DNA of 64,000 nt from an uncultured Gammaproteobacteria bacterium (GTDB taxonomy: Bacteria; Patescibacteriota; Microgenomatia; Levybacterales; UBA12049): contig CAZRWL010000001.1 in NCBI GenBank assembly GCA_964603935.1, positions 2,306 to 66,305 on the forward strand. Direction: 5' to 3'. Positions 319-63,570 of this stretch are shown in pieces. Under the pieces are notes generated by a model that was given only the letters and a program-made list of their open reading frames with translations, was not told where the DNA came from and searched no databases. The position numbers and the translations under genes were made by a program. The stretch's first letter is position 1. Each line of letters starts with the position of its first letter.

Positions 319-684
319 ATGAATCGGAGAAAGCGGCCTTTTTGGCTTTTGGTTACTAGCCTTTTGTCTTTAGCCGGCATTATTTTTTTAATTAATTTTT
401 ACTCCCCATCAGCGCAATTTTCCTTGCCCCTCGGAGCCTTGGCAAAGGGGGGAATTTTCAATTTTCAATTTTCAATTCTTTCTGTTTTCTTTTTATTATT
501 TTTTACTTTCCTCTTGTCTCTTATCACTTATCTCCTACGTAGTTCTCGGAGGGCTTTCTTAATTGGATTTTTGACGATAATTTATCTTATTTTCCGCATG
601 CTTAATTTAAACAGCCCCTATTTTCTGCTCCTGCTCATCGCTCTTTTCGTGAGCCTTGAACTTTTCTTCAAAAAACAAGCATAA
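319..684 (+). CDS. Hypothetical small membrane protein (3-4 predicted TM helices); contains in-frame heptamer repeat
   Basis: 121-aa ORF, strongly hydrophobic. No recognisable family. Confidence 0.3.
   Translation: MNRRKRPFWLLVTSLLSLAGIIFLINFYSPSAQFSLPLGALAKGGIFNFQFSILSVFFLLFFTFLLSLITYLLRSSRRAFLIGFLTIIYLIFRMLNLNSPYFLLLLIALFVSLELFFKKQA
453..476. repeat. Heptanucleotide tandem repeat (AATTTTC)x3.4
   Basis: gaattttcaattttcaattttcaattc, translated in-frame as FNFQFSI within ORF 319-684. Confidence 0.9.
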
Positions 685-2785: not shown

Positions 2786-3958
2786 ATGAAACATCCCAAA
2801 AAAACTGACAAGCAAAAACTCCTTATTATTTTATTTTTATGCTTAATTGTTCTTAGCGCTATTTCCTTCTTCTATTTTCTTGAGTCAAGAAAATCTCAAA
2901 ATTTCATTTTAAGCTTGAATAAGACTATAGACTCTACAAAAAAAGAATTGAGTAAGTTAAAAAACGAAGATCAATACAAGATTAACGAACAACTAAAAAC
3001 AGACATTAAATCAACCCATGATTCCTATAGCGAAACTGTTAAAGCCTATGAGAAAATCTTGGATTTAAAAGCGCAAAAGCAAGATGTTGGCGATTTGGAA
3101 AAAACTTATGCGGGAATTTTACAATATTTAACTGATCTTAATTATTCATCCGGATCCGCTCTGCTGACGGAATTAAATAACGATATAAACAAGAAATATA
3201 ACGCAATTGCTGCGACACAGAGTTCATTACCTTCAAATCAAACAGCAACTGCAAGCAATACTCCGCCATCAAGCGGATACAGTTTTCAGACAGTCAAAAC
3301 CGACAATGGAACTTTTAACGTGGCTATTATAGCAGCTGATCTTAATTCAACTAAAGTCATTATTGATACCGCATCGGATTCGGATTGCAATAATAATTGT
3401 CCGGTTATGGCTTTGGGTGATTATGCTGCCAGATCCGGAGCTTATGCGGGAATCAACGGCCCGTTTTTCTGTCCGGCAGAATATCCCAGCTGCGCAGGCA
3501 AAACTAATTCTTTTGATACTCTTTTGATGAATAAAAATAAACATTATTTTAATTCCGATAATAATAAATACAGCACCGTGCCGCTTATTTATTTTAGCGG
3601 CAATACCATGGGAGTACGGGGACAATCTTTGGATTGGGGACGGGATACGGGCGTAGATGCTGTTGTGGCTAACTTTCCTCTTTATCTTTCAGGCGGCAAT
3701 AATAATTTTGGAGGAAGTTCGGATCCTAAGATTAATAGCGCCGGCGCCCGAACTTTTGTCGCCAACAAAGGCAACTCTGTTTATATCGGTATTGTCTATA
3801 ATGCTTCAGCAGCCCAAGCAGCAGGCGTTCTTAAGACGCTTGGGATGGATAACGCTCTGGGATTGGATCAGGGAGGGTCAACTGCGCTTTGGTTCAACGG
3901 CTACAAAGCAGGTCCGGGAAGAAACATCCCCAGCGCTCTTCTTTTCGTCAGAAAATAA
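2786..3958 (+). CDS. Membrane-anchored phosphodiester glycosidase (DUF2233/NAGPA-like) family protein
   Basis: N-terminal TM helix, then a coiled-coil region, then a C-terminal domain with GINGPFF..DQGGSTALW motifs resembling DUF2233. Confidence 0.45.
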   Translation: MKHPKKTDKQKLLIILFLCLIVLSAISFFYFLESRKSQNFILSLNKTIDSTKKELSKLKNEDQYKINEQLKTDIKSTHDSYSETVKAYEKILDLKAQKQDVGDLEKTYAGILQYLTDLNYSSGSALLTELNNDINKKYNAIAATQSSLPSNQTATASNTPPSSGYSFQTVKTDNGTFNVAIIAADLNSTKVIIDTASDSDCNNNCPVMALGDYAARSGAYAGINGPFFCPAEYPSCAGKTNSFDTLLMNKNKHYFNSDNNKYSTVPLIYFSGNTMGVRGQSLDWGRDTGVDAVVANFPLYLSGGNNNFGGSSDPKINSAGARTFVANKGNSVYIGIVYNASAAQAAGVLKTLGMDNALGLDQGGSTALWFNGYKAGPGRNIPSALLFVRK

Positions 3959-4050
3959 ATATTAGAGAAGAGAAACAGGAACTCTTAATCCCATTCTAAT
4001 CAGCTTCTTGAATTGATTTCTGCAGATTTGCCTTACGCTCTCCAATTTAG

Positions 4051-4078
4051 AAAAAGAGATATCTCTTTTTATTTTTCT
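4051..4078 (+). terminator. Putative intrinsic terminator
   Basis: aaaaAGAGATATCTCTtttt palindrome followed by ATTTTTC, about 90 bp downstream of the 3958 stop. Confidence 0.4.
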
Positions 4079-4137
4079 TGCAAAAATTCTCATAGCAGCG
4101 ATCTTCATAGCTTCGATTTGCTCATTCTTCGATTCCA

Positions 4138-4180
4138 CTCAGAATCCTGAGCGAGTCGAAGGACTATGACCCTGAGCCTG
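4138..4180. repeat. Dispersed ~45-bp repeat family, copy A (intergenic)
   Basis: ctcagaatcctgagcgagtcgaaggactatgaccctgag resembles copies at 12593-12640 and 17855-17913. Shared core is CAGAATC..CTGA..CGAG.TC.AGGA..TGAC. Confidence 0.4.
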
Positions 4181-4357
4181 CCGAACGGATCATACTACCC
4201 AAATTGCTGCGTGCGCATTAGCATATAAAACCCTATTGCGCTCACCGCAATCAACAGCGATATTTCCATGCACTCATTTTAAGTTTCGGGTGTAAATATT
4301 ACTTTAAGCGCAAGTAAGAAACATGAAAGAGAAACTGATATATAATAATGGTACCCT

Positions 4358-5152
4358 ATGATTGACGTGCACTGTCATCTGAATTTTCATGCTTTTGCAA
4401 AAGATACCGATAAAGTTATCGGAAACGCATTTGCAGCCGGAGTTACCAAAATCATTAATGTGGGGACTAAAATTGACTCAAGCCAAACCGCTGTAGATTT
4501 GGCGCAAAAATACGAAAATTTATATGCAATTGTTGGAATCCATCCCCACCACGCTGATAAATTAGAAAGCAATTGGCTTGAAGAGTTGGAAGAATTAGCA
4601 AAAAAACCAAAAGTAGTGGCAATTGGCGAGATTGGAATGGATTATTATTCTTACAAATCAAATGCTATTGTTGACCCCAAATTGCAAAAAGAAGTATTCA
4701 TAAAACAGATTCAGTTGGCGCATAAACTAAATCTTCCTCTGCAAATTCATAATCGTCAGGCAGGAAAAGACATAGTGGATATACTGCTAAATCATAAGTC
4801 ATATCTCTTAAATCCCCCGGGCATGTTTCACTGCATGTCAGGAGACTTAGATTTGTTGAAAAAAGTCCTGGATTTTGGATTTTATGTTGGCTTTGATGGC
4901 AATATTACCTATAATGGTATCGCTAAAGGAGAAACAACAGCTCTATCCGAGCTGGTAGAATATGCTCCCTGCGATAGAATTGTGACTGAAACAGACAGTC
5001 CTTTTTTGACGCCCGAGCCCCACAGGGGTAGCAGAAATATACCCTCCTATGTTATAATTACAGCTAGGAAAATTGCGGAAATTAAGAAAATTCCCTTTGA
5101 AGAATTAGCCGATAATGCAATCCAAAACGCAATAAGACTCTTTAAGCTATGA
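4358..5152 (+). CDS. tatD: TatD-family metal-dependent hydrolase (DNase)
   Basis: MIDVHCHLNFHAF start, GEIGMDY motif and a D..G...FDG pattern typical of the TatD family. Confidence 0.85.
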   Translation: MIDVHCHLNFHAFAKDTDKVIGNAFAAGVTKIINVGTKIDSSQTAVDLAQKYENLYAIVGIHPHHADKLESNWLEELEELAKKPKVVAIGEIGMDYYSYKSNAIVDPKLQKEVFIKQIQLAHKLNLPLQIHNRQAGKDIVDILLNHKSYLLNPPGMFHCMSGDLDLLKKVLDFGFYVGFDGNITYNGIAKGETTALSELVEYAPCDRIVTETDSPFLTPEPHRGSRNIPSYVIITARKIAEIKKIPFEELADNAIQNAIRLFKL

Positions 5153-12574: not shown

Positions 12575-12592
12575 AAAAATCCCCTTTCGGGG
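12575..12592 (-). terminator. Putative intrinsic terminator for minus-strand RhuM gene
   Basis: CCCC-tttc-GGGG hairpin at 12581-12592, followed on the minus strand by TTTTTATT. Confidence 0.4.
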
Positions 12593-12640
12593 AATTCTGA
12601 GAACCGAGATCCTGAAATAAATTCAGGATGACATTTTAAT
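12593..12640. repeat. Dispersed ~45-bp repeat family, copy B (intergenic, contains ATCCTGAA-ataa-ATTCAGGAT hairpin)
   Basis: gaattctgagaaccgagatcctgaaataaattcaggatgacatt. The lepA copy looks like this one with the hairpin loop deleted (gaaccgag + ttcaggatgaca). Confidence 0.5.
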
Positions 12641-12664: not shown

Positions 12665-13219
12665 TCATTTTTTAATTCTTTTCAAAAGTTTTTTAACTTC
12701 TTTATCAAAGTCGGAAATATAATTTTTGTCCTGTACTTTTTTATATTTTTCGTATTCGCCAAGAGCAAGAGTTTCTGCAACTTCGTGGCTTATTTTTCCG
12801 GCATTGGTTAAAATCTCATATTCACTAAACTTCAAAAAAGCATTTAGCTTTTCTGTCCAATCTTTCATCGTCATTGCCTTTCCCCTTGCCGCCTGCATTT
12901 CCGCATAATCCAAATACATATTGCCGATACGATTAAGATGGGCCAATTCTTTTTTGTCCAGATAATTTTTCCCATCTTCGGCAGTATGTGCAAATTTTGC
13001 ACTAACTGAATCTTTATCTAACTCATTCTCAATAAAAATGTTCTTTAGGTGTTTGGTGACAACGCTTCTCTCGACATCAAAAAGTTCCGCTATCCTTTTT
13101 TGCGTCAACCAGATATTTTCCCTAGCATAGAGCACCTCAATATTTACTGCTCCGTCTGGAGATTGATAGAAAGCGATTTGATTATCCGGTATTTTTCTAA
13201 CTGAATATTTCCGATTCAT
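12665..13219 (-). CDS. RhuM-family virulence/mobile-element-associated protein
   Basis: 184 aa. NIEVLYARENIWLTQKRIAELFDVERSVVTKHLKNIF matches the RhuM (PF13310) signature. Confidence 0.6.
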   Translation of the reverse strand: MNRKYSVRKIPDNQIAFYQSPDGAVNIEVLYARENIWLTQKRIAELFDVERSVVTKHLKNIFIENELDKDSVSAKFAHTAEDGKNYLDKKELAHLNRIGNMYLDYAEMQAARGKAMTMKDWTEKLNAFLKFSEYEILTNAGKISHEVAETLALGEYEKYKKVQDKNYISDFDKEVKKLLKRIKK

Positions 13220-15395: not shown

Positions 15396-16301
15396 ATGTC
15401 CATTTTTTCGTCATACAAAAAAATATTTTTATTAGGCTTCATGGTTATGGTTCTGGTAATAACTCCTCTTTTCGTATTTGTAGCTCAGCAAAACCAGCAA
15501 ACAAAAAGCAAAGCATCCGCATCCACCACTCTTGCTTTTGAACCTATATCTTCCGCAGTAAAAGTAGGGGAGATTTTAACTTTAAATGTCATATTGGACC
15601 CGGGAAAAAGCACATCATCTCCAAATTTAGTCTCTTTTGTAAAACTAGTCATTAACTTTGACCCGAGAAAATTTACAGCTGAAAACACATGCCTTACCGA
15701 AAACACTGTTGCCAACACCTTAACTACCAAATTGGAAGGGCCGATATGCGAACCAGGAAAAGCATCTATTTCTTTGTCTATCGGCGCTGATCCTGCCAAG
15801 GTCGTAACAGAAGTAACCAAAATTGCCGTACTTCAGCTTAAAGCTTTATCCCCAACTGAAGGCAATAATCCCAGCAGTATCACATTTGATATTTCCAACA
15901 ATAATACCCAAGTTTTGTCAATTGCATCAACAGACAAAACAAGCGAAAATGTGCTAAATTTATTATCAACCAGCACGCCTGCTTCGATAACCATTAACCC
16001 CGCGCCATCTGCTCCCGGAGCTAGTCCAACTCCAACCCCAACTCCTACTCCAGCTACTGCCCCATCCGCATCCGCTGGAAGCGCTCCTGCTGCTCCTCAA
16101 ACAGGAGATGCCGTTGTTAACGCAGGAACGCCTGAAGCAATTGCTCCGACTGCTGCTCCTGAGATAATTGCTCTAGCTCCGCAGCCCCCACCTACCGAAA
16201 TAGTCCTTCCCCCAACAGGTCCTGAAGAAAACATATTGGGAATTGGGGCAATTGGGATAATACTTACAATTATAGGCAGCGCTTTATTTATGCTCCTTTA
16301 G
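15396..16301 (+). CDS. Cell-surface protein with cohesin-like domain, Pro/Thr/Ala-rich linker and C-terminal LPXTG-type anchor (LPPTG + TM)
   Basis: N-terminal signal anchor, a cohesin-like beta domain, PTPTPTP linker, then ..IVLPPTGPEENILGIGAIGIILTIIGSALFMLL at the C-terminus. Confidence 0.55.
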   Translation: MSIFSSYKKIFLLGFMVMVLVITPLFVFVAQQNQQTKSKASASTTLAFEPISSAVKVGEILTLNVILDPGKSTSSPNLVSFVKLVINFDPRKFTAENTCLTENTVANTLTTKLEGPICEPGKASISLSIGADPAKVVTEVTKIAVLQLKALSPTEGNNPSSITFDISNNNTQVLSIASTDKTSENVLNLLSTSTPASITINPAPSAPGASPTPTPTPTPATAPSASAGSAPAAPQTGDAVVNAGTPEAIAPTAAPEIIALAPQPPPTEIVLPPTGPEENILGIGAIGIILTIIGSALFMLL

Positions 16302-18109
16302 TTGTTTTCTTCAATCATCGAAAGAAGAGCTTCTTGGGGAATAGAAATTTTTGCCTGCTCGATCATTCGCGATTTTCCTTTTTTCTGGGCTTCTAATAAT
16401 TTATCCTTTCTTCTTCTGTCCCCGCCTGACATTTTCGCCAAAACATCTTTCCTGAAAGGAGGTATTTCTTCCCGAGTAACAATCTCTCCGTTCATAACCC
16501 CTTGAATAATTTGTCTGAATTGCTGTCTAGGCAAAGAGTTTTTAAGTCTTTCAGCTTTCTTCCTCACCGCACTAACTGCCTCGTCTTTGTATGCAAGCTC
16601 AGACAAGACATCTATTGCAATATCATTCACTTTTATTTCTACCTTTGCCAAATCTGCTTCTTTATATGATGTAACTTCATAATCTAGGCTTGCAAATCCT
16701 TCCGACGCGGATTTCAGATCTGAAGAAATTCCTCTAATAAACATGCTGAATGGCATATCATAAGATAATACCGCATAGGACTCATGGTAATTTAAGTCCA
16801 AAAGATTGCCCTTTCTGGTCTGGCAAATATTCATTACCGGACCGACATACTCTTTTGGCGTATAAACTACAAGCTTCATGTATGGTTCAAGCATTATTCC
16901 GTCAGGTGTTTTTTCGTATAAGACTTGGGGCATTGTCAGCAATATTTCAAGATTAAATTCCTGTTTTATTCTTTCTTTAACAATCTGCGCATGCAAAAGC
17001 CCCAGAAAGCCTATTCTAAATCCGCTTCCCAAATATGACGAGTACTCCTCAGTGTAGGTTAAAGCCGTATCGTTCAAAGTTAATTTTGCTAAAGATTCTC
17101 TTAAGTAAACAAAATCATTCGTATCCTTAGGATATGCTCCAAAGAACACCATAGGTTTTGGAATCTTATATCCCGCCAACGCTTCAACTTTTCCATCTTC
17201 CATCTTCCATCTTCCATCTTCAGCCGTTACTGTGTCTCCAACGCGCACTTTTCTAATATCTTTTATTCCTGTAATAACATAGCCGATTTCGCCTGTTGAT
17301 AAGCTTCCCGAAGATATCAAGTGAGGAGAAAAATAACCTAAATCAGTTACTTCTGTTTGAATATTATTCTGATAGAGCTTGAGACTGTCTCCTTTATTCA
17401 AATGTCCGTCAACAATCCTGACGTACGCGACTACTCCGCGGAATTCGTCATAGACCGCATCGAAAATCAAACCGCGAAGAGGCTTATCTTTTTCTCCAAT
17501 TGGGGGCGGCAGTTTTTTTACAATCGTATCTAATAATAAATCCACATTTTTGCCGGTTTTGGCCGAAATATATATTATTTCCTCTTTTTTAAACCCAAAG
17601 GTCTCTATTAATTCTTGAGCTGTCATTTCTGTCCGGGCGCTTTCCAAATCTATTTTATTAACAACAGGAATCATTATCAAATTCTGTTTTTGAGCTTCTC
17701 TAAAATGAGCAACAGTCTGCGCCTGAATGCCTTGTGTCGCATCAACCAATAAAATAGCTCCCTCGCAAGCAGCCAGAGTTCGGGAAACTTCGTAGGAAAA
17801 ATCAACATGCCCGGGAGTATCTATCAAGTTCAAAATGCATTCCTCACTCATATTGTCATTCTGACGAATGTCAGAATCTAGATACTGAACCGAGTTCAGG
17901 ATGACACGCGACTTATACCTCATTCTTACCGGCGCTAATTTGATTGTAATTCCCCGCTTACGGCTGATTGGATTCTGGTCCAGAAATTGCTCCTGCATCT
18001 TATCTTTTTTGACAGTACCTGTTATTTCCAAAAACCTATCCGCAAGAGTAGATTTCCCGTGATCCACATGGGCAATAATCGCAAAATTCCTGATCTGTTT
18101 CTGCTCCAT
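16298..18109 (-). CDS. lepA: Translation elongation factor 4 (LepA) with ~19-aa in-frame insertion in G domain
   Basis: NFAIIAHVDHGKSTL, IDTPGHVDFSYEV and the LepA C-terminal domain are all present. An extra segment SRVILNSVQYLDSDIRQNDNMSEEC lies between G1 and G2, relative to E. coli LepA. Confidence 0.9.
   Translation of the reverse strand: MEQKQIRNFAIIAHVDHGKSTLADRFLEITGTVKKDKMQEQFLDQNPISRKRGITIKLAPVRMRYKSRVILNSVQYLDSDIRQNDNMSEECILNLIDTPGHVDFSYEVSRTLAACEGAILLVDATQGIQAQTVAHFREAQKQNLIMIPVVNKIDLESARTEMTAQELIETFGFKKEEIIYISAKTGKNVDLLLDTIVKKLPPPIGEKDKPLRGLIFDAVYDEFRGVVAYVRIVDGHLNKGDSLKLYQNNIQTEVTDLGYFSPHLISSGSLSTGEIGYVITGIKDIRKVRVGDTVTAEDGRWKMEDGKVEALAGYKIPKPMVFFGAYPKDTNDFVYLRESLAKLTLNDTALTYTEEYSSYLGSGFRIGFLGLLHAQIVKERIKQEFNLEILLTMPQVLYEKTPDGIMLEPYMKLVVYTPKEYVGPVMNICQTRKGNLLDLNYHESYAVLSYDMPFSMFIRGISSDLKSASEGFASLDYEVTSYKEADLAKVEIKVNDIAIDVLSELAYKDEAVSAVRKKAERLKNSLPRQQFRQIIQGVMNGEIVTREEIPPFRKDVLAKMSGGDRRRKDKLLEAQKKGKSRMIEQAKISIPQEALLSMIEENN
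17855..17913. repeat. Dispersed ~45-bp repeat family, copy C, inserted in-frame within lepA; two adjacent perfect hairpins
   Basis: ATTCTGAC-gaat-GTCAGAAT (17858-17877) and CTGAAC-cga-GTTCAG (17885-17899), then ttcaggatgaca shared with 12628-12639. Confidence 0.5.
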
Positions 18110-25125: not shown

Positions 25126-27477
25126 ATGAATTTTTCCGACTTTTTATCCGTTGTGCAATGGTGGACAGTAATTTTTATTATTGGAGCTATTTTTATTCCA
25201 ATAACGAATTTAATTCTTTCAAATTTTTTTGACAAAGGCTATATTTTTTCAAAAATTATAGGGACAGCTGCAATAAGTTACGCTGTTTTTGTTCTCGGAT
25301 TTTTAAAAATCCTCCCCTTCACTCAAGCAACAATCTTTATTGTAATTGCCTTATTTGCAGGTATAAATATACTAATTTTCAAAAAAAAAATAAAGTTAGC
25401 AATTAAACAATTTGACAATGAAGCAATTAAAATAATTATCTTCGAAGAGGCTCTTTTTTTGGGAGTTCTATTTTTCTGGTCTTTTATTCACGCTCATCAG
25501 CCAGACATTCATGGTTTGGAAAAATACATGGATTACGGATTTATTAATTCGATATTGAGAGCCAAATATTTCCCGCCTCTAGATATGTGGTTTACTCCAT
25601 TCTCAATTAATTATTATTATTTCGGCCATTTAGTTACAGCCGTGCTAACAAAATTGTCCCTCCTTCCCTCACCAATTACTTTTAACCTAATGCTCTCGAC
25701 AATTTCTGCGCTATCTTTTGTTTCCGCTTTCTCAATCGGAGCTAATCTTTTCAAGATTTTAATGAACAAGGGACGGGTGGCAAAAGAGGAAGGGCTCCCG
25801 ACCCCACTTCGCTTGAAAGCTTCGAGGGGCAAAACAACGCTAGAGTCAGCGGGCTTGCCAGCCGTAGCTTTAGCGAAGGTTGGAGGGAAACTTTTGACAG
25901 GACCCGTCCTCGCAGGACTTTTGACGGCATTTATTTTAAACTTTGCGGGAAATTTACATACCCTGCATCTATTCTTTAAGCCTTATCTTAATGAAAATCC
26001 TGTGCCTTTTTGGAATTTAATATTCTCCCCCCAAACATTCCCCAATAATTATTGGTATCCAAATGCAACGCGTTTTATTGAAAATACGATCCACGAATTT
26101 CCCATTTATTCCTCTGTTGTTTCCGATCTTCACGGCCACTTCCTGGATCTCCCTTTTGTTTTACTAACAATAGCCATTCTCTTATCGCTAGTACTAAAAT
26201 CGCAAATCACAAATCACAAATCACAAATAAACCTTAATGTTCAAAATTCAAAACGTTTTGGATTTTTTAATTTTAGAAATTTGAATTTATTTGGAACTTG
26301 GAATTTTGAATTTAGAATTTTATTGCTGGCATTTTTGCTGGCAATAATGTATATGACGAATGCTTGGGACGGAATAATCTATTTCATACTAGCTACTCTT
26401 ATTATTGGCTATACTATTCTAAAATCACTAATTAATCCTTCAGAAATTAAAAATGCAAAATTCAAAAATTTTATTACTTTATTTATTCCCAAGATTTTAT
26501 TATTAGGATTCTTCTTTTTTCTATTCTCTCTACCCTTTAATTTAAATTTCAAGCCTTTTGCTTCCGCAATTGGCATACTTTGCGCGCCGGATTTCTTAGT
26601 GCGTTTGGAAAAATTCGGACCTTTCATTTTTGAAGCGAATCATTGCCAGCACTCTCCCGTATGGCAGTTATTTATTCTTTATGGCTTCTTTTACTTTTGG
26701 GTAGTTTCGTTCGTTATATTTCTTTTTAAAAATTTAAAAACAAAAATTGAAAATTTATCAGTATCCGATATATTCGTTGGAATTCTGATAATATTATCTA
26801 CCCTGCTTATTATTATCCCTGAATTTATCTATGTAAAAGATATTTATCCCGCGCACTACCGCGCCAATACGATGTTCAAGCTCGTTTATGAATCCTTCAT
26901 TATGCTTTCGTTAGCCTCGGGCTACATCGTAATAAGAATAATTAATAGTTTCAAATTTGTTTATTTGTTTATTGGCAGTATTGGATTATTCCTCGTAATG
27001 GTCTATCCTTATTTTGCGATTAAATCTTATTTTGGAGATTTAAAGGCTTACTCCGGACTTAATGGAACAAACTACCTTAAGCCGCTTTATCCTCAGGACT
27101 ACGATGCTATTTTATGGATAAATAAAAATATCAAAGGACAACCTGTAATTTTGGAAGCTCAAGGCGACTCGTACACGGATTATGGACGTATATCTACTAA
27201 TACCGGATTGCCGACAGTTTTGGGCTGGACTGTTCACGAATGGCTTTGGCGCGGCGCCTATGATATTCCAGCCCCAAGAATTGCGGAAATCGCAGAAATG
27301 TATGAGTCTAAAAACCCTAAGGAAACAAAAAAATTATTAAAAAAATATAACGTATCGCTTGTATTTTTGGGCGACCTTGAACGGCAAAAATATCTCAATC
27401 TTAACGAAGAGAAATTTAACTCATTTGGAAAAATAATTTACCAAAACAACCAGACAAAAATTTACAAAATTAATTAG
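25126..27477 (+). CDS. Large polytopic membrane protein of the YYY (TIGR03662/DUF2298) family
   Basis: SINYYYFGH motif and more than 15 TM helices. Contains a GC-rich insert (25765-25920) and variant heptamer repeats (26197-26320). Confidence 0.55.
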   Translation: MNFSDFLSVVQWWTVIFIIGAIFIPITNLILSNFFDKGYIFSKIIGTAAISYAVFVLGFLKILPFTQATIFIVIALFAGINILIFKKKIKLAIKQFDNEAIKIIIFEEALFLGVLFFWSFIHAHQPDIHGLEKYMDYGFINSILRAKYFPPLDMWFTPFSINYYYFGHLVTAVLTKLSLLPSPITFNLMLSTISALSFVSAFSIGANLFKILMNKGRVAKEEGLPTPLRLKASRGKTTLESAGLPAVALAKVGGKLLTGPVLAGLLTAFILNFAGNLHTLHLFFKPYLNENPVPFWNLIFSPQTFPNNYWYPNATRFIENTIHEFPIYSSVVSDLHGHFLDLPFVLLTIAILLSLVLKSQITNHKSQINLNVQNSKRFGFFNFRNLNLFGTWNFEFRILLLAFLLAIMYMTNAWDGIIYFILATLIIGYTILKSLINPSEIKNAKFKNFITLFIPKILLLGFFFFLFSLPFNLNFKPFASAIGILCAPDFLVRLEKFGPFIFEANHCQHSPVWQLFILYGFFYFWVVSFVIFLFKNLKTKIENLSVSDIFVGILIILSTLLIIIPEFIYVKDIYPAHYRANTMFKLVYESFIMLSLASGYIVIRIINSFKFVYLFIGSIGLFLVMVYPYFAIKSYFGDLKAYSGLNGTNYLKPLYPQDYDAILWINKNIKGQPVILEAQGDSYTDYGRISTNTGLPTVLGWTVHEWLWRGAYDIPAPRIAEIAEMYESKNPKETKKLLKKYNVSLVFLGDLERQKYLNLNEEKFNSFGKIIYQNNQTKIYKIN
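26197..26320. repeat. Variant heptamer repeats (AAATCAC)x4 followed by AATTTTGAATTT-type degenerate units
   Basis: aaatcgcaaatcacaaatcacaaatcacaaataaa ... ttgaatttatttggaacttggaattttgaatttagaatttt, in-frame, giving peptide KSQITNHKSQIN... Confidence 0.8.
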
Positions 27478-28540: not shown

Positions 28541-29198
28541 TTTTTATAATTTCCAAAAATTCTAAGACACCAAGACTTGCTGTTCCAACCCCTACGCCGT
28601 CTATATGAGGCATTGCGGTAAAAGATGATACATTTCCGGGATTCACGCTCCCGCCATACAAAACAACTTTTACGGGATTGTTACTCTTTGTAAATTCAGC
28701 AACTTCATTGGCATTACGAGGATTATCCGGAATGCCCGTACCAATTGCCTCTATTGGCTCGTATAGCACAATATCTGTATTTTTGGGTACAAACGTATTT
28801 CTGCTTTGAATGCAAAAAATTGAAATTAAATTATTGGCTTTGGCTAAATTAACTTTACGTTCCAACATCTCATCGTTTTCTAAAAAATTTTTTCTTCTTT
28901 CGGAATGTCCAATAATTACATAGTCCGCTAATTCCTTTATTTGCTTTGCGTTGATTTCGCCGGTATACGCTCCTTCACTAAAAGGCGAGATGTTTTGCGC
29001 TCCCAGCTTTATATTCAATTTGTGATTTAAGATATAAGATTTAAGAATGGGAAGAAGCGTAAAAGGCGGACAAATAATGATTTCCTTCCCTGAAATTGAA
29101 AATTGAAAATTGAAAATTGAAAATTTATGGAGCCAATCTTTAGCTTCAGATTCGGTTTTATTGGACTTCCAATTGGCAATAATATAGAGTTTTTTCAT
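28533..29198 (-). CDS. tpiA: Triosephosphate isomerase with in-frame heptamer-repeat insertion
   Basis: ANWKSN, IIGHSERR, YEPIEAIGTG and YGGSV motifs. The inserted loop FSIFNFQFSISGKE is encoded by (GAAAATT)n at 29091-29126. Confidence 0.85.
   Translation of the reverse strand: MKKLYIIANWKSNKTESEAKDWLHKFSIFNFQFSISGKEIIICPPFTLLPILKSYILNHKLNIKLGAQNISPFSEGAYTGEINAKQIKELADYVIIGHSERRKNFLENDEMLERKVNLAKANNLISIFCIQSRNTFVPKNTDIVLYEPIEAIGTGIPDNPRNANEVAEFTKSNNPVKVVLYGGSVNPGNVSSFTAMPHIDGVGVGTASLGVLEFLEIIKNA
29091..29126. repeat. Heptanucleotide tandem repeat (GAAAATT)x5 (= AATTTTC on coding strand) inside tpiA
   Basis: tgaaattgaaaattgaaaattgaaaattgaaaattt. Confidence 0.9.
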
Positions 29199-31099: not shown

Positions 31100-32031
31100 A
31101 AGACGATTTGCCCAGTCATCCCCTGCAATCAAAGGAATGGGGAGAATTTAGAAAAAAAACAGAAGTCAAAGTAATTAGAATAGGTGGAGTTCAAATGACA
31201 GTCCACAAAATTCCCCATATGCCTTGGACAATCGGCTATGTACCAAAAGGACCTTTGCCTACGCAAGATATGATTTCCGATCTCAAAAAAATTGGCAAAC
31301 AGGAAAAATGCATTTTTATTCAACTAGAACCCAACGCCTCAAAAATTTCAAATTTCAAATTTCAAATTTCAAATTTGGGGCTTCGGCCGTCTGTTCATCC
31401 TCTTTTTACCAAATATACCTTCATTCTTGATCTGACAAAATCAGAAGAAGAATTATTAAAAGCAATGCATCCGAAAACTCGTTACAACATCAAAGTAGCG
31501 CTTAAACATGGTGTTAAAATTGTTGAAGATAATTCGGACGGGACATTTGAAACTTATTTAGATCTCACAAAAGAAACAACCAAGCGTCAAGGTTTTTATG
31601 CACACACAGAAATGTACCATCAGCTAATGTGGGATACTCTTAAAAATAAGATAGCTCACTTACTTTTGGCAAAATATGGGAAGCAAACGCTGGCGGCGTG
31701 GATTTTATTTGTTTACAAAGATACCCTTTATTACCCATATGGAGCTTCCTCAAGCTTACATAGAGAAACAATGGCATCCAATCTAATGATGTGGGAAGCA
31801 ATAAGGTTTGGAAAAAAATTAGGTCTTAAAAGATTTGACATGTGGGGAGCGCTAGAGCCAAATCCGGACAAGAATGATTCCTGGTATGGATTTCACAAAT
31901 TTAAAGAAGGGTATGGACCGCAACATGTGGAGTTTTTAGGAAGCTTCGACCTGATTATAAACCCCGTGCTTTATCAACTCTATAAAATATTAGACAAGAT
32001 TAGATGGATATTTCTAGGGCTTAAAAAATGA
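31096..32031 (+). CDS. FemAB-family peptidoglycan interpeptide-bridge aminoacyltransferase (start corrected; ATGA overlap with helicase stop)
   Basis: PLQSKEWGEFRK N-terminus and FemX-like GNAT-fold C-terminal half. The upstream extension of ORF 30916 lies inside the helicase gene and is rejected. Contains the in-frame repeat peptide KISNFKFQISNLG. Confidence 0.7.
   Translation: MKDDLPSHPLQSKEWGEFRKKTEVKVIRIGGVQMTVHKIPHMPWTIGYVPKGPLPTQDMISDLKKIGKQEKCIFIQLEPNASKISNFKFQISNLGLRPSVHPLFTKYTFILDLTKSEEELLKAMHPKTRYNIKVALKHGVKIVEDNSDGTFETYLDLTKETTKRQGFYAHTEMYHQLMWDTLKNKIAHLLLAKYGKQTLAAWILFVYKDTLYYPYGASSSLHRETMASNLMMWEAIRFGKKLGLKRFDMWGALEPNPDKNDSWYGFHKFKEGYGPQHVEFLGSFDLIINPVLYQLYKILDKIRWIFLGLKK
31341..31376. 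repeat. Heptanucleotide tandem repeat (AAATTTC)x5 inside FemAB-family gene
   Basis: aaaaatttcaaatttcaaatttcaaatttcaaattt, followed by ggggcttcggcc. Confidence 0.9.
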
Positions 32032-40257: not shown

Positions 40258-41250
40258 ATGTTGAATCCTGATTTGAAACTTAACCAAAAATTATTTGATG
40301 CTGACGCAGAAATTAAACCTACCCGCGCAGGTTATGGAGAAGGACTTTTGGAGCTTGGCGGAAAAAATCCCAATATTGTTGCTCTTTGCGCTGATTTAAC
40401 AGAATCAACCTACGCTCATCTTTTTGCGGAGAAATATCCCGAAAGATTTTTCCAAGTCGGAGTTGCCGAGCAAAATATGGCTGCAATCGCAGCGGGTCTT
40501 GGAGTAAGCGGAAAAATTCCCTTTATTTCTTCGTACGCAACTTTTTCTCCGGGCAAAAACTGGGAAACTATCAGAACAACTATTGCCTATAACAACTCTA
40601 ATGTGAAAATTGCCGGACACCACGCAGGAATAATGACCGGTCCGGATGGCGCAACTCACCAGGCAACCGAGGACATTGCAAGCATCAGATCCTGGCCGAA
40701 TATAAAAATTCTTGCTCCTTGCGACAGTATTGAGGCAAAAAAAGCAACAATTGCAGCCGGAGAAACAAACGGCCCTGTTTATCTCAGATTCTCCAGAGAT
40801 AAAACTCCAATAATCACAACGCAGGATTCGCCTTTTGAAATAGGTAAGATTCAAATTTTTTGGACTAGTGATACTCCAATTGCAACAATTCTTGCAATGG
40901 GCTACATGCTCCATTACGCGCTGGTTGCTGCAAAGGAGTTAGAGCAAGAAGGAGTTAGAGTGCTGGTTGCAAATGCTTCAACTGTCAAACCTTTGGATGA
41001 AGAAGCTGTTTTTTCCCTTGCTAAAAGGACCGGCGCTTTTGTTACAGTTGAGGATCACCAGGTTATGGGCGGACTGGGAGGAACGATCGCAGAATATTTG
41101 GCTAAAAATGTTCCAACACCAATGGAATTTATCGGTCTTCAGGACACCTTTGCGGAATCAGGAAATCCAAAAGAATTAATTGAAAAGTATGGAATGGGAG
41201 TTCAGGCAATAAAACAAGCAGTGAAAAAAGTAATCGCCAGAAAAATATAA
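40258..41250 (+). CDS. Transketolase, C-terminal (pyrimidine-binding + C-terminal domain) subunit
   Basis: GVAEQNMAAIAAGL and PDGATHQATEDIA motifs. Confidence 0.85.
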   Translation: MLNPDLKLNQKLFDADAEIKPTRAGYGEGLLELGGKNPNIVALCADLTESTYAHLFAEKYPERFFQVGVAEQNMAAIAAGLGVSGKIPFISSYATFSPGKNWETIRTTIAYNNSNVKIAGHHAGIMTGPDGATHQATEDIASIRSWPNIKILAPCDSIEAKKATIAAGETNGPVYLRFSRDKTPIITTQDSPFEIGKIQIFWTSDTPIATILAMGYMLHYALVAAKELEQEGVRVLVANASTVKPLDEEAVFSLAKRTGAFVTVEDHQVMGGLGGTIAEYLAKNVPTPMEFIGLQDTFAESGNPKELIEKYGMGVQAIKQAVKKVIARKI

Positions 41251-41333
41251 TTTTCAATTTGAAATTTAAAATTTGAAATGAAAATTTAATTTTAAAAATT
41301 CAATGAAAATTAAAAATTGAAAATTTAAAATTA
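41251..41333. repeat. Degenerate A/T heptamer repeat tract (GAAATTT/GAAAATT-like units) in intergenic region
   Basis: ttttcaatttgaaatttaaaatttgaaatgaaaatttaattttaaaaattcaatgaaaattaaaaattgaaaatttaaaatt. Confidence 0.6.
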
Positions 41334-42986
41334 ATGGAAAATAATCTTATTGATCAAATCAAAACCATAATCAAAGGGGATGTCTTAGGAGATGAAAAAA
41401 CTCTTCAGGAATATTCCCATGATGCCAGTCTTTTTGAAGTAAAACCCCAAGCAGTCGTCTTCCCAAAAGACGTGGAGGATATAAAAAAACTGGTTAAATT
41501 TGTATCGGAAAATAAGAAAAGCAATCCCTCGCTTTCTCTAACCGGAAGATCTGCGGGAACAGATATGGGAGGAGGGTCTATCAATGATTCTATCATTGTG
41601 GAATTTAATAAATATTTTAATCATACCCCGCAAATAAACGGTACTGTTGCCACAACAGAACCCGGTGTTTTTTATCGGGATTTTGAAAAAGAAACATTAA
41701 AACACAACCTTATTTTTCCTTCTTATCCTGCGTCCAGAGAAATCTGCGCAATGGGCGGAATTTTGAATAATAATTCCGGCGGAGAAAAATCACTGCAATA
41801 TGGAAAAACAGAAAAATACATTGAGGCAATGAAAGTTGTATTAAGTGATGGAAATATTTACGAGTTCAAAAAACTCTCAGAACAGGAGCTCCAAGAAAAA
41901 ATATCGCTCAAAACATTTGAAGGCAAAATTTACAGAAAGATATATAAACTCATTATTGATAACCAAGATAAGATTAGCAAAGCCAAACCTAATGTTTCTA
42001 AAAATTCCGCAGGATACTATCTATGGAATGTTTACGACAGGGAGAAGAAAACTTTTGACCTAACGCAGTTATTTGTCGGAGCACAAGGGACATTAGGACT
42101 TCTGACGGAAGCAAAGGTTAAGCTTGTCCCCGTACCCATACACCGGGAGATGGAAATTATTTTCCTGCGCGATCTTGCACATTTAGGAGAGATTATTGAT
42201 GCAGCCTTATCTTTGCAGCCGGAAAGTTTTGAGTCATATGACGATAACACGCTAAAACTGTCTCTGAGATATTTCCCTGAATTCGCTCACCAGCTGGGCA
42301 TTGCCGGACTTATCCAGGCAGGCATAGCGTTTCTGCCGGCATTTTTACAAATGCTTATCGGCAGACTTCCAAAATTGGTTCTGCAAATTGATTTTGCCGG
42401 AAATGATCTTAGCGAACTTAAGAAAAAAATAGATACTCTGCATGCAAAGCTTAAACCCTTTCACCCTCAAACACGTATCGCAATTGACGATCAGGAAAAA
42501 AAATATTGGCTGGTCAGACGGGAAAGTTTTAATTTGCTGCGCAAAAAAATCAGAAACAAACACACCGCGCCTTTTATTGATGATTTCGTAATCAACCCGC
42601 ATCAAATTGCAGAAGTCATTCCAAAAGTAACTTCAATTTTGAAAAAATATCCGGAATTTATTTTCACTGTGGCAGGTCATGTCGGCAATGGAAATTTCCA
42701 TATTATTCCATTGGCTGATATTACAAACAAAAAAGTACGTCAGGCCATCCCAATTATTGCCGACAAGACTTACGATATTATTGCCGAATATAAAGGTTCT
42801 ATAACCGGAGAGCATAATGATGGACTTATCCGTACCCCCTATTTGAAACAAATGTATGGCGAAAAAATAATAAAAATTTTCGAAGAGGTTAAAAATATTT
42901 TCGATCCCCAAAACATCTTTAATCCCAGAAAAAAAGTTTTTGGAGATTTGGATTTCGCCCTAAACCACATCAGAGAAAATTGGTAA
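41334..42986 (+). CDS. FAD-linked oxidase (GlcD/D-lactate dehydrogenase family)
   Basis: FAD-binding PCMH-type N-terminus (LTGRSAGTDMGGGS) and a C-terminal FAD-oxidase domain. Confidence 0.6.
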   Translation: MENNLIDQIKTIIKGDVLGDEKTLQEYSHDASLFEVKPQAVVFPKDVEDIKKLVKFVSENKKSNPSLSLTGRSAGTDMGGGSINDSIIVEFNKYFNHTPQINGTVATTEPGVFYRDFEKETLKHNLIFPSYPASREICAMGGILNNNSGGEKSLQYGKTEKYIEAMKVVLSDGNIYEFKKLSEQELQEKISLKTFEGKIYRKIYKLIIDNQDKISKAKPNVSKNSAGYYLWNVYDREKKTFDLTQLFVGAQGTLGLLTEAKVKLVPVPIHREMEIIFLRDLAHLGEIIDAALSLQPESFESYDDNTLKLSLRYFPEFAHQLGIAGLIQAGIAFLPAFLQMLIGRLPKLVLQIDFAGNDLSELKKKIDTLHAKLKPFHPQTRIAIDDQEKKYWLVRRESFNLLRKKIRNKHTAPFIDDFVINPHQIAEVIPKVTSILKKYPEFIFTVAGHVGNGNFHIIPLADITNKKVRQAIPIIADKTYDIIAEYKGSITGEHNDGLIRTPYLKQMYGEKIIKIFEEVKNIFDPQNIFNPRKKVFGDLDFALNHIRENW

Positions 42987-45481: not shown

Positions 45482-48400
45482 TTAGAAATTCAGCTTATGC
45501 AGTTTCCTGTAGAATAGCTCTCTGTTCAAGACTAGGACTGATGTGATCATCAAGACAATCAGGATAAGCATAATGTTCTTAGCAGGAAAACCTTTAGCTG
45601 TTTGAGTCTTGCCTTGAGGTGTTTCTTTTTCCTGAGTTGCCCCTAGAACTTCTTTTTCATTCTGACCTATTTGATCTAATTGAGTAATTAAGTTATCATC
45701 TGCTAAATCAGAAATAGTATTGCTGTTTCCCTCCCCATTTGCCGTAACTGTGGAAGTTGTATTTGAAGAAGCAGACGACAGAGTGGGAGTGGGAGTTGGA
45801 GCAGCAGTTACAACAACAGGAGCAACGGTTTGAGTAGTAGCTATATAATAGGAAGCTTTGGTTGCCTGAAACGTGCATGTCCCATCCGCAACAACACATT
45901 TGTGAGGCGGGAGAATGCCGTCATTTGTCCAGTTGTCCGTACCTGTTCTTGAGCGCAAAACACTGAGCGTTTGACCGTTAAGAGCGGTTCCTACAAAAAT
46001 ATTTAATGTGATGGGATTGCTGAACGAAAGTCCATGATTTGGAATACCCCATTGCAGCTTGCCGTTAACCACTATCCCCTCGCCTACTCCTGTTATAGAG
46101 TCGCTTGTAGGTTCAATCGCTGTGAGAGCGGCAATATCCAGATTGCTTCCGTCGATCTTGGTAATTTCTGTTCCGTCAGGCACTGTTACGAAACTTGTTC
46201 CTCCGTTAACAGTAACGTTAACAACAGATGTTCCTAAGGAAATTACTTTGGAAGTGATTGTCTCTCCGTTTAGGGGAGCAAATTTACCCTGTCCGTCAAT
46301 ACTTTTGAAAACCGCATTGCCAAAGCTTAATCCTTCGATTTGGTCTCCTCCGGAAATGGTAACAGCGTGCTTCCCATTTCCTCCTCTTGGCGTGGATAAT
46401 TCCCAGTTGCTTTGCAGAATTTCCCTGACATTGTATGATCCGGGAATTAAATCGGAGAATTGATAGTTACCAAATGCATCGGTTACGGTTGAGAATTCCC
46501 CTGTATCCAATATACTATTGTCGTTGGCATCCAGGAAAATCGTCCAGCCGGAAAGCGCTAATTCATTTACATCTTTGACCCGATTTATATTTGCATCCTG
46601 AAAGACTATTCCGCTAATTGCGCCTTTCTTGTCTTCATCAGGCACAACTACGTCCAAAGGAGCAGTTACCGTAATAGCTGCAGCTATGGGACTTATTCTT
46701 TTGGCAGGACCAAAACTATACGCCCGCAGGAAAACCTGATGCGAGGGGTGCGAGGTATAAGTTTGATTTTGGTCAACAAAAGGAGATGTTTGATTTATGT
46801 GTTCGCGGATATCATCCGAAGTTCCCATAATCCCGTCAGGTCCGGGTAAATTGGTTGCGCGGGTTAAGACCATGAAGTTGGAATGGCTTAACGGATTGAA
46901 AAGAGGATCATCCGGCATAAGAGGTACGAACACTGTGCCGCTTTTTCCCTTGTTAACCAGGTCAAGACCATGATCAAAAAACTGGCCGAATAGAATAAAC
47001 CATGAATTGAATGATGCGGACAAACCCATATCCGGAGCAACATTTGGAATAAATAGAGTGCCTGCAAAAGGATCGGGCAAGGTAAGTTCTCCTGCGGCGG
47101 CAACAGCTGCGGGATTGCTTGGGGTTTGATCAACAATCAAATTGCTGATCAAACGCGGTTTGGAATCAAACACAAAACCATTGGTTTGAGCGTAAGATGT
47201 TAAGTCCCCTACCTTTAACGGTCCCGGCCCATCCAGGTCAATACTAACTATTTCTCCCTCTCTAAATATCGGAGTTGTCAAACGGGGGAATATCCGGTCT
47301 GCTGCGCCAAAACTTGATTGGCCGGGCACAATATTATTCCATGATCCGTCAATCGTACGAAGACCCCAAGGCAAAGTATCTTTGGGGATTAGATTCAATA
47401 ACGGTGTGCCCGCCGCATGAGCTTCCGCAATCCTGATTTGGTCTAAAATGAATTGCAGGTCAGATCTTATCAGGGTCAGTCCTGATCCGCCAAGGAAACT
47501 GCTGCCTGCAGATATTGCCAAAATACCCTTAAGCTTCGGAGATTCTACTTTGTTAAGACCATGCTCCAGATCTATTGTCTGATCGGCAAACTGTAATTTT
47601 TCAATGTTGCGGATTGTGTCTATGCCATTGTTTTCTTTGCCCCCATTGTCAGCTCTATTATCGGTTACTGTTATTCTGCCCTGAGCATCAGGCAAGCTAA
47701 TAGTATAGTCGGCAAAATTACCTGAAAATACGGCTGTGTCAATATCATTTTCGGCAGTACCCGATACCAATATTTCACGGATTATTCTGATTTGACCCGG
47801 ATTTATTTTGCCTTCAAAGATCGCTTCCTGAAGCTCTGTCATGCTGTCAGCAGTCAGAATTTCAATGCCGGGATCATTGCTGTCTCTTACGCTAAGACGC
47901 GCATTAAGCCATGCGTCCCCGTCTATAAGATCGTTTCCGCCGCGTCCCTCAATAATATCGTTTCCGCCCCCGCCCAGAATAATATTACCGCCGGAAAAAG
48001 AGGTAATATCGTCTCCAAGCAAACTTTGCAAACCGTCAATCAGCGCAATTTGACCTGCATTATTTAATGAATTGTTTTGGCCGGAGTTACCGTCAATTTT
48101 TGAGAGTTCAATGCTGCCAAGATTGTCTCCCCGCAGAATGTCGTTGAATTGTCCGCCTGATAAACCTTCGACCGAATCGAAGCGGTCGCGAAGAGTATCT
48201 ACTTCCGGCAACATTAAGCCTTTGAAAAACATATCCGCGTTAGCCGGCTGAGGATCATTTTTATAAGTAACCCAGTCAAAACCCTGCATGCCTTCATTGC
48301 GTTCAATACCCGGATCGGAAAGCATAATGTCATCTCCTGATTCGGAGTCGTAATCGTCGTCTCCTCCGCCACCTATAATAACATCATTGCCGATAGTTGA

Positions 48401-63475: not shown

Positions 63476-63570
63476 GCGACATATCTCTTTGGGGACGTAC
63501 CAGTCGGTACATCCCTACCTCACCACTCATTGGCGAAGCGATGAACCCGAATGCAATGAGTGGTTCGTTG

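Follow-up and report, generated by a model that had tools for sequence, protein, structure and literature searches.

A REP-like hairpin dimer carried in frame by lepA of a Levybacteria bacterium

The window analysed here, a stretch of 64,000 nucleotides (64 kb), carries a lepA gene whose product has 100% identity to a database entry annotated as elongation factor 4 from Candidatus Levybacteria and matches the Pfam families GTP_EFTU, EFG_C and LepA_C (Table 1). In E. coli, lepA is dispensable. The ORF is intact and the G1 (AHVDHGKST) and G3 (DTPGH) motifs are invariant, but the stretch from GITIK to DTPGH comprises 39 aa compared to 20 aa in P0003, the closest insert-free LepA orthologue (584 aa, ~88% identical), and the window LepA is 19 aa longer. 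An earlier note on this DNA had claimed about 19 extra residues between the P-loop region and DTPGH, and the comparison of orthologues bears this out; close orthologues lack the element. The insert lies in the GTPase domain, between β-strands 2 and 3. In an AlphaFold2 model of moderate overall confidence (mean pLDDT 72), these strands span residues 61-67 and 89-97 and are joined by coil at residues 68-88, with pLDDT below 50 for residues 73-87.

Seventeen of the ~19 added residues are encoded by an element of two hairpin units with their tags outside, i.e. a ‘head-head’ heterodimer, whose units resemble types among the CGTC-tagged REPs, CGTC-1 to CGTC-4 (Di Nocera, De Gregorio & Rocco 2013, PMC3733652). 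At the centre, the tails of the two units overlap over CTAG, leaving no spacer. The stem of unit B is perfect, and in unit A a single base of the second stem fails to pair with ATCCTGAA. Both adjacent hairpins proposed in the earlier note are present: ATTCTGAC-gaat-GTCAGAAT (17858-17877) pairs over 8 bp, and CTGAAC-cga-GTTCAG (17885-17899) pairs perfectly over 6 bp, or over 9 bp if one mismatch is allowed, the loop of unit A being 3 nt when it is drawn with the 9-bp stem. The span given there, 17855-17913, identified the right site, but its end adds seven flanking bases and the proper limits are those in Table 1. Folded as single-stranded DNA, the 53-mer forms exactly these two hairpins (z = -3.0 and -3.8 for the two strands). 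A scan of the window for tagged units returned three, compared to 0.16 expected from shuffles, and none of 100 shuffles reached this number. The family arm profile, built from other genomes only, matches the lepA element with E = 0.002, and the lepA, 12.6-kb and 4.1-kb sites were its top three matches in the window, lepA ranking first. Neither a search of the whole window nor one of the element at permissive thresholds gave an Rfam match at gathering score, and the sub-threshold matches, at the element and at one relative, were to generic hairpins only. Hammerhead-like motifs (GUC, CUGA and GAA) were considered by eye, and this reading was dropped because the CUGANGA core is absent.

Table 1. 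Features of the lepA element and its relatives in the window
Feature	Position	Strand	Description
lepA (elongation factor 4)	16298-18109	minus	603-aa intact ORF, hosts the element; ORF list
REP dimer, tags outside (‘head-head’ heterodimer)	17854-17906	.	53 nt, encodes V69-D85 (VILNSVQYLDSDIRQND) in frame
Unit B	17854-17880	+	CGTC-1-like, 8-bp stem, 4-nt loop; tag TGTC 17854-17857, stem ATTCTGAC 17858-17865, loop GAAT 17866-17869, second stem GTCAGAAT 17870-17877, tail CTA 17878-17880; unit scan
Unit A	17879-17906	minus	CGTC-2-like, 8-bp stem, 5-nt loop; tag TGTC 17906-17903, stem ATCCTGAA, loop CTCGG, stem TTCAGtAT, tail CTA 17881-17879; unit scan
Singleton intergenic unit, TGTC ATCCTGAA tttat TTCAGGAT CTC	12609-12633	minus	tag 12633-12630; arm profile E = 0.015
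Probable remnant of a partner unit B, GGTTCT--CAGAATTCC, stem-loop lost	12592-12608	minus	by-eye alignment with the lepA dimer
Two decayed arms of a sister sub-type, ATTCTGAGTGGAATCGAAGAAT (-) and ATCCTGAGCGAGTCGAAGGA (+)	4124-4163	.	arm profile E = 0.39 and 0.033

The intergenic unit at 12.6 kb has a perfect stem (ATCCTGAA/TTCAGGAT), a 5-nt TTTAT loop and the tail CTC, and is flanked by the stop of a minus-strand ORF (12665-13219) and a terminator-like hairpin, CCCC-gaaa-GGGG with a T-run. The core that the earlier note found common to this unit and the lepA copy, GAACCGAG..TTCAGGATGACA, has exactly two sites in the window, both exact (12601 and 17887), with none expected from 100 shuffles. 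Its view that the lepA copy equals the 12.6-kb element minus the hairpin loop was wrong; the two are homologous units with different loops, TGTC ATCCTGAA ctcgg TTCAGtAT CTA in lepA and TGTC ATCCTGAA tttat TTCAGGAT CTC at 12.6 kb. Beside the singleton, positions 12592-12605 read GgTTCT--CAGAATtcC, and the second unit of the intergenic copy looks collapsed, which would make this stretch the probable remnant of a partner unit B. A 28-nt unit identical to the 12.6-kb copy lies after groEL in another Levybacterium (L249, 15249-15272), within a different spacer. The third, diverged copy that had been suggested near 4.1 kb exists but is marginal (E = 0.03 and 0.39): its arms belong to another sub-type, stand back to back and have lost their tags. 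They lie within a 400-nt stretch that has no ORF of at least 70 aa and folds into a single long hairpin (z = -3.9); we regard the site as an apparently real, weak member of the family. The window thus holds three units and the decayed arms in 64 kb, and other Levybacteria loci hold about one unit per 15-20 kb; as the genome data comprise 64 kb only, a copy number for the source organism is an extrapolation from these three units.

Relatives of the element occur far beyond this genome. A scan of a genome collection returned at least 120 stretches, with more than 20 phyla among the matches listed, and a metagenome scan for the unit B hairpin (GATTCTGAC-NNNN-GTCAGAATGAC) returned at least 133 sites in at least 120 stretches. 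Copies of the family lie mostly outside any long ORF, in many genomes, and among the metagenome matches listed just 1 of 133 is located in lepA. The unit A type GTCATCCTGAACTTGTTTCAGGATCT is present in Sphingomonadales, Rikenellaceae, Ekhidna, Roseivirga, Aureitalea and others, and the metagenome matches listed are likewise dimers of two different units with outward tags, in which the partner units vary and include the published CGTC-3 type GTCATTCCGGGCTTGACCCGGAATC. Conservation stops sharply at T/GTCAT...ATGAC/A: in the 127 relatives compared, GTC is preceded (-1) by T in 76% and by C in 18%, the +1 base is A in 74%, and nothing is conserved beyond. The family consensus after the stem is CT. 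No target-site duplication was found, and 112 of the 127 relatives are without any flanking direct repeat.

All-versus-all clustering of the ORFs around 120 listed members showed no recurrent linked transposase and returned housekeeping families only. A RAYT/TIRYT profile built from the supplement of the 2013 paper (PMC3733652) gave no match in the window, in ~190 kb of Levybacteria or in 860 kb of family loci, in a search run without a positive control. Compared with plasmids and phages, the consensus dimer gave one weak plasmid match and no phage match, and IMG/VR returned 38 stretches only; no vector for the family is evident from these plasmid, phage and IMG/VR searches. Literature searches by raw sequence returned unrelated primers only, and those on in-frame palindromic repeats in the Candidate Phyla Radiation (CPR) returned nothing relevant.

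The same β2-β3 loop is occupied in 24 of 120 Levybacteria-like LepAs. What fills it varies: the TGTC REPs fall into three sub-types, and the other occupants are AT-rich hairpins and short fragments rich in GC. There are six distinct inserts of the TGTC type, in two reading frames, the one in L075 having been found by DNA pattern alone, and other Levybacteria and a Magasanikbacterium have different REPs or AT-rich hairpins at this loop. The carriers are not each other's nearest relatives, and each carrier's closest LepA relatives (83-93% identical) show a plain 4-aa turn. The lepA genes of the window and of L001 are 70.7% identical in DNA and 45% identical at third codon positions, while the two elements agree at 51 of 52 positions and this identity ends at their borders. 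As the identity of the elements far exceeds that of the host genes and close orthologues lack the element, the insert was very probably gained rather than inherited.

Every insert seen at the loop preserves the reading frame, and none uses the single frame containing TGA, a record that is biased towards survivors because most carriers were found through intact database proteins. Empty and filled junctions, compared in four pairs, are not clean because the closest insert-free relatives are 7-16% diverged in protein, and owing to this blurring, the exact insertion point and the absence of a target duplication rest on the family-wide flank statistics. Directly ahead of the element, the filled alleles have an L-to-S change in common. 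A seeding by microhomology between host ACATTCTGAAT (Y-I-L-N) and the REP end GTCATyCTGAA was considered and rejected, as the motif is not conserved in other insert-free lepA DNA.

These data suggest that the insert is very probably a dimer of two TGTC-tagged REPs of the CGTC superfamily, gained in a loop of the LepA GTPase domain. The observation made in the earlier note is confirmed, and its reading, a small REP- or MITE-like dispersed element that landed in frame, is supported by anatomy, abundance, sharp ends, absence from close orthologues and a nucleotide conservation far above that of the surrounding gene, which all agree. The opposite picture that it had named, with no other copies and an insert common to relatives as a protein feature, is not what was found. 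‘REP’ is the better label than ‘MITE’ because the element has neither target-site duplications nor long terminal inverted repeats around a core.

We propose that the dimer was inserted into lepA at the β2-β3 hairpin tip, where it occupies one of the two reading frames that are stop-free for its sequence type. Since the frame is kept, the element is presumably transcribed and translated with the gene, and the ~19 added residues would form an unstructured loop on the surface, distant from the nucleotide pocket, that the protein appears to tolerate. The insertion seems to be recent and lineage-specific, and other Levybacteria and the Magasanikbacterium probably gained their own REPs or AT-rich hairpins at the same loop independently. 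The simplest reason for such repeated hits may be selection, with only the insertions in a permissive loop and a stop-free frame surviving. Its abrupt ends, the T and A at its flanks and the lack of target duplications suggest movement by a hairpin-dependent single-strand DNA route, as in REP/IS200-type elements, with the enzyme possibly acting in trans; we know of no mobilising enzyme for the CGTC-tagged superfamily. A bolder proposal is that the lepA loop and the DNA just upstream of lepA form a true preferred landing site of still-mobile CGTC-type REPs in CPR bacteria, the pattern then not being due to selection alone. We consider this improbable; if true, the empty and filled lepA alleles would be a natural trap that reveals both the mobilising activity and its target rule.

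The non-sister pairs window/L001 and P0007/P0010 share both the element type and its site, which could also reflect transfer instead of repeated insertion, if filled loops spread between Levybacteria by short homologous-recombination tracts or were kept uniform by gene conversion from copies elsewhere in the genome. Consistent with this, filled alleles share TCA or TCG (Ser) before the element, L001 and L125 share TAT TCA TCA RAT, and several carriers share the R in VRMRY, unlike their nearest insert-free relatives. However, identity between the window and L001 collapses directly outside the element on both sides. Moreover, at least six element sequences in two frames occupy the loop, which requires multiple separate origins regardless, and we regard such spread or conversion as rather unlikely. 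Retention for a function would be an addition to the origin by insertion, not a substitute for it: the element may act as a hairpin in the lepA mRNA (in pausing, processing or stability), or the loop may have a role at the ribosome. The near-identity of the window and L001 elements, despite silent-site saturation of the surrounding lepA genes, would fit such a role, as would the occupancy of the loop in 24 of 120 Levybacteria-like LepAs and the idea that REPs outside genes act as RNA elements. Against it, the occupants are unrelated, with neither a peptide nor a structure conserved among them, and in most relatives the 4-aa turn suffices. High identity would be expected anyway if the copies were drawn from a conserved pool, and the identical 28-nt unit is found at unrelated spacers in two genomes. 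A retained function is doubtful in our view.

The length of the β2-β3 loop varies among translational GTPases, which might favour an ordinary lineage-specific expansion of the LepA loop, with coincidental hairpins and matches. Such an expansion is highly improbable given the excess of tagged units over the shuffles, the first rank of the lepA site with an independent family profile, the near-identity to the element of a distant lepA that is confined to the element, and the hundreds of relatives elsewhere. It is also conceivable that the element never reaches the protein, being spliced out, bypassed by the ribosome or an artefact of assembly. The window has a self-splicing group I intron elsewhere, but no support for removal or artefact was found and nothing in Rfam matches the element. 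The inserts keep the frame and avoid the TGA frame, which would be irrelevant if the element were removed, and NCBI, JGI, ENA and Logan data contain this architecture from independent assemblies. We give this explanation almost no credence.

In-frame ‘decoration’ of proteins by REPs would thus extend to the CPR, beyond Rickettsia and a few other bacteria, and one conserved loop of a translation factor appears to have been struck repeatedly by unrelated hairpin repeats. Such inserts inflate the apparent protein divergence in CPR genomes and can lead alignments, phylogenies and structure predictions astray. Filled and empty lepA alleles also offer clean material for the question of how repeats without a transposase move.

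Among known systems, MITEs are 70-300 bp long, with terminal inverted repeats of 15-30 bp around a core and usually direct repeats of the target, whereas the lepA element has 53 nt, consists of two hairpin units only and is without target duplication. GTAG REPs, REPINs and BIMEs are similar to it in their tagged hairpins, inverted doublets and lack of target duplication; they lie mostly 3′ of genes and are thought to move as single-strand hairpins. The element does not belong to the GTAG REP/REPIN-RAYT system, as its tag is TGTC instead of GTAG and searches of the window, of related loci and of the surroundings of the 120 listed members gave no RAYT-like gene. The Coxiella repeats QMITE1/2 are small and non-autonomous and sometimes lie in frame within ORFs, adding residues (PMC5896051). 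In Rickettsia, RPE-4 corresponds to CGTC-4 and RPE-6 to CGTC-1; both are palindromic repeats in frame in seemingly functional genes and a classic case of selfish DNA in coding genes (PMC3733652). The lepA element is likened to them as a short in-frame palindrome, and the hosts differ, those of RPE-4 and RPE-6 being obligate intracellular α-proteobacteria. RPE-1 is a different, longer element (>100 nt).

The closest match is the CGTC superfamily, which is defined by an unpaired CGTC tag at one end (often TGTC, CCTC also being allowed), a stem of 8-9 bp that starts with an A-T pair followed by a T-A pair, a loop of 4-5 nt and an unpaired 3-nt tail, mostly CCA (PMC3733652). Its members are mostly dimers with the tags outside (HH), often heterodimers; units or dimers inside genes encode 20-30 aa, and no transposase is linked to them (PMC3733652). 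The lepA element has the TGTC tag, the 8-bp A-T/T-A stems, the 4-5 nt loops, the HH heterodimer arrangement and no linked transposase. The peptide RHSELVSGS, encoded by a CGTC-2 unit of Sulfurovum, is what the unit A sequence type gives in the +1 frame. The element differs in that its two tails overlap without a spacer, and the 3-nt tails of the window units are CTA, CTA and CTC rather than the published CCA. CGTC repeats were known in five phyla, the CPR being absent (PMC3733652), whereas the window host is a CPR bacterium and the superfamily now appears far wider, with more than 20 phyla among the matches listed. The target genes listed in the same paper do not include lepA, and repeated occupation of one loop across lineages is not described there, save for recB in two Xanthomonas species. 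In summary, the lepA element joins the already-known kind of CGTC-tagged REPs, and the recurrently hit loop is the modestly new part.

The ORF at 16298–18109 (minus strand) is intact, and its 603-aa product is 100% identical to a database elongation factor 4 of Candidatus Levybacteria (CPR/Patescibacteria), the source of the window. The switch-I threonine motif (GITIK) of this LepA is separated from its G3 motif (DTPGH) by 39 residues, compared with 20 in P0003 (584 aa), its closest insert-free orthologue, in agreement with the roughly 19 extra residues reported in the earlier note. The extra coding-strand DNA, GTCATCCTGAACTCGGTTCAGTATCTAGATTCTGACATTCGTCAGAATGAC between T and A, corresponds to window 17906 down to 17854 and encodes VILNSVQYLDSDIRQND (V69–D85); the G-motif residues are all invariant. 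An AlphaFold2 model (64 homologues) has strands at 61–67 and 89–97 joined by a coil at 68–88, with pLDDT below 50 at 73–87, and predicts that the insert is a flexible extension of the hairpin tip in the GTPase domain. In Ras-like domains, this tip is on the far side of the sheet from the nucleotide pocket. Levybacteria LepA has two further indel hot spots, near residues 299 and 401, where inserts such as FDSAQDNKSGQEV, PSASSGQGG, and KWKMPARQRLRPHNQIQNKGLSQAKSGGE look repeat-derived; in the window protein the first of these has a short additional stretch, GRWKMEDGK.

The insert is one design used twice in inverted orientation, with tags outward and tails overlapping in a central CTAG. Folded as single-stranded DNA, the 53-mer forms exactly two hairpins on either strand (z = −3.0 and −3.8 versus shuffles), the same two adjacent hairpins that the earlier note described. 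Scanning the window for GTC followed by an 8-bp stem starting AT and a 3–6 nt loop returned exactly three units, against a mean of 0.16 in dinucleotide shuffles, none of 100 of which reached three. The third unit is flanked by a stop codon on one side and a terminator-like hairpin on the other.

Repeat units and other features, with positions in the window or in the named locus
Feature	Source	Position	Strand	Detail
Unit B	window	17854-17880	+	TGTC ATTCTGAC gaat GTCAGAAT CTA
Unit A	window	17906-17879	-	TGTC ATCCTGAA ctcgg TTCAGtAT CTA
Third unit	window	12609-12633	-	TGTC ATCCTGAA tttat TTCAGGAT CTC
Stretch with decayed REP arms	window	3958-4358		400 nt, no ORF of at least 70 aa
Arm-like fragment	window	4172-4185		CTGAGCCTGCCGAA; one of several in 3958-4358
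LepA indel hot spots	window	about 17215, 16905		
AT-rich phased palindromic repeats	window	453-477, 26194-26234, 29094-29131, 31343-31381, 41236-41338		AATTTTCAATTTTC, AAATTTCAAATTTC, AAATCACAAATCAC
tRNA gene	window	63540-63860	-	anticodon loop split by intron
Group I intron	window	63616-63806		Rfam RF00028, 88.6 bits
Giant ORFs (adjacent)	window	45482-52933, 52954-59304	-	2483 and 2116 aa
lepA-associated repeats	L098, L105, L120, L126, L075	2253-2309, 1440-1501, 6525-6581, 8578-8601, 1071-1147		
Sister sub-type arms	L055, L018	4064-4120, 3710-3783		examples from L005-L124

Members of the family are dispersed widely. In species-representative genomes, the end-derived pattern GTCATYCTGARC N26–56 TCAGRATGAC matched at least 120 stretches, and those listed come from Acidobacteriota, Chloroflexota, Clostridia, Bacteroidota (a few of them cultured), Planctomycetota, Cyanobacteria, Nitrospirota, Omnitrophota, several proteobacterial classes, several CPR groups, and others. 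The interior is conserved although it lies outside the search pattern (GTCATyCTGAgCGaAGCGAAGrATCT, a variable loop, and the reverse complement), and one sub-type among the listed matches is identical to unit A. Their flanks carry T at −1 in 76% and A at +1 in 74%, beyond which conservation stops abruptly, and show no target duplications. Of the 129 listed copies, only 13 lie within an open reading frame that extends 150 nt or more to each side. Plasmid and phage collections contain almost no members of the family, and IMG/VR few. Unit B occurs at 133 or more metagenomic sites, one of them in lepA among the matches listed, and its many different partners, including the published CGTC-3 type and the unit A type, show a modular dimer design. 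In anaerobic-digester metagenomes (L133, L135, L150, L158, L167, L189), unit B (GATTCTGACATyCGTCAGAATGAC) regularly terminates a longer conserved repeat, ...TAGTAAAAATACTAATGACTAATAACAAATGACTAATGACCTATAAAAACTATTTTTAAGATG, which is a composite element. Arms of a sister sub-type, GTCATyCTGAGCGAAGCGAAGrATC, hardly differ between Acidobacteriota, Cyanobacteria, and CPR; their y and r positions co-vary, so every arm forms a small hairpin of its own around GCGAAGC.

A single-arm profile built solely from foreign-genome copies ranked the lepA site (E = 0.002), the 12.6-kb site (E = 0.015), and the 4.1-kb site (E = 0.033) as the best three of the 64 kb; these are the three copies that had been proposed, of which the third is weak. 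The core said to be common to the first two is borne out by a gapped motif that occurs twice in the window, where none is expected. Their alignment, which had made the lepA copy the other minus its loop, is corrected at the unit level: both share the first arm and differ in the loop (ctcgg versus tttat). The element is dispersed and in frame, as described, and of the two labels offered REP is better than MITE. With three corrections, the observation and interpretation of the earlier note stand. An Rfam search found no RNA family match for the stretch holding the decayed arms.

At the LepA turn, 24 of the 120 best homologues carry extra residues (6–37), and in most of the others the turn is four residues long (LNSE, LDSQ, or LNAI). 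The inserts comprise the window's type, with a longer version in P0085/86; GTCATCCTGAACGAAGTGAAGGATC...CTCAGAATGAC in P0080; GTCATCTCGAAC...GTTCAGCATGAC in P0007/10; GTCATTGCGAGCGAAGTGAAGCAATC...CGCAATGAC in P0114; a single decayed arm in P0002, the closest relative of the window LepA; and long AT-rich hairpins, e.g. in P0038 and P0069. A Magasanikbacteria lepA, found by DNA pattern alone, carries a dimer at this turn too, read in the alternative open frame (CHPERSEGS...PQND). No carrier has another carrier as its nearest relative; the nearest relatives are in every case insert-free. The window lepA shares 70.7% of its DNA sequence with that of L001, a locus whose lepA has a similar element, and third-position identity is 45%; one 25-nt internal segment aside, 51 of 52 bases agree between the two elements, and the match stops at the element ends. 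All 17 third positions within the element are identical, making shared descent under protein-level constraint alone very unlikely (0.45^17, ~1e-6). These comparisons, together with an identical 28-nt unit that two Levybacteria genomes have in different spacers, point to independent acquisition on several occasions from a pool of conserved copies. AT-rich repeats of the kind found in the window also fill the loop in other Levybacteria (L249, L250) as long hairpins, encoding strings like NSKLQIPNKSQ...NSLEFGASDLEF.

The separate gains, the tagged-unit anatomy, and the dispersed family contradict a plain protein-loop expansion of LepA, which is excluded. There is no support for an element that is spliced out, bypassed, or an assembly artefact. 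One of the three reading frames through such dimers has a TGA at each end (TCA TCC TGA; TCA GAA TGA), and the observed inserts use only the two TGA-free frames, as expected under selection for a translated, uninterrupted gene; this bias argues against removal, and the same design was assembled in four independent data sources. Spread of filled loops by recombination or gene conversion is alive for some pairs, since filled alleles share a Leu-to-Ser change directly before the element and often an Arg in VRMRY, both lacking in their insert-free nearest relatives. The Ser is seen in LepA codons 62–68 of the window, L001, L125, and L002. These shared residues could reflect compensation or short recombination tracts. 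Maintenance of the element for a retained function is unlikely given the diversity of occupants, and need not be invoked.

Repeats also occur beside lepA. The gene is present in 4 of 120 listed loci selected by repeat pattern alone, against about 0.25 expected by chance; three repeats lie 30–185 nt upstream of its start in unrelated phyla (Clostridia, Betaproteobacteria, and Berkiella genomes), and one is inside lepA in Magasanikbacterium (L075). In a further Levybacterium, a unit precedes lepA by 10 nt. The association was not reproduced among the matches listed for the metagenome set. Elsewhere in the window, the exons of the split tRNA gene form a normal cloverleaf, probably with anticodon GUU (Asn), and ARAGORN predicted no tRNA at all in the 64 kb. 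Both giant ORFs contain families of internal repeats of about 250–270 nt.

No recurrent gene family was found beside the 120 family members listed. A RAYT profile that also covers related Y1 transposases, built from the supplement of the 2013 paper (PMC3733652), had no match in the window, about 190 kb of Levybacteria loci, or 860 kb of family loci. The sharp ends, hairpin units, and missing target duplications are reminiscent of single-strand transposition of the REP/IS200 type. The element may move by a similar single-strand DNA step, and GCGAAGC in the very widespread sister sub-type, an unusually stable DNA mini-hairpin, would fit such a step.

Judged from its sequence, the element has the anatomy that defines the CGTC-tagged REPs, and only the tail differs, being CTA or CTC in the window units and mostly CCA in the published repeats. 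In that superfamily the usual arrangement is a dimer with outward-facing tags, often a heterodimer; units and dimers that lie within genes encode 20–30 aa, and there is neither an associated transposase nor a reported dedicated enzyme (Di Nocera, De Gregorio & Rocco 2013, PMC3733652). CGTC-1 and CGTC-4 are equated there with Rickettsia RPE-6 and RPE-4, and a Sulfurovum CGTC-2 unit in the supplement encodes RHSELVSGS, which is the +1-frame reading of CGTCATTCTGAACTTGTTTCAGGATCT, i.e. the unit A type; peptides of the sister sub-type are absent from the paper's intragenic list. The superfamily and its in-frame habit are already known. New are the host group and the gene, the finding that one LepA loop has been occupied repeatedly and independently, and a phylogenetic range much wider than that reported in 2013.
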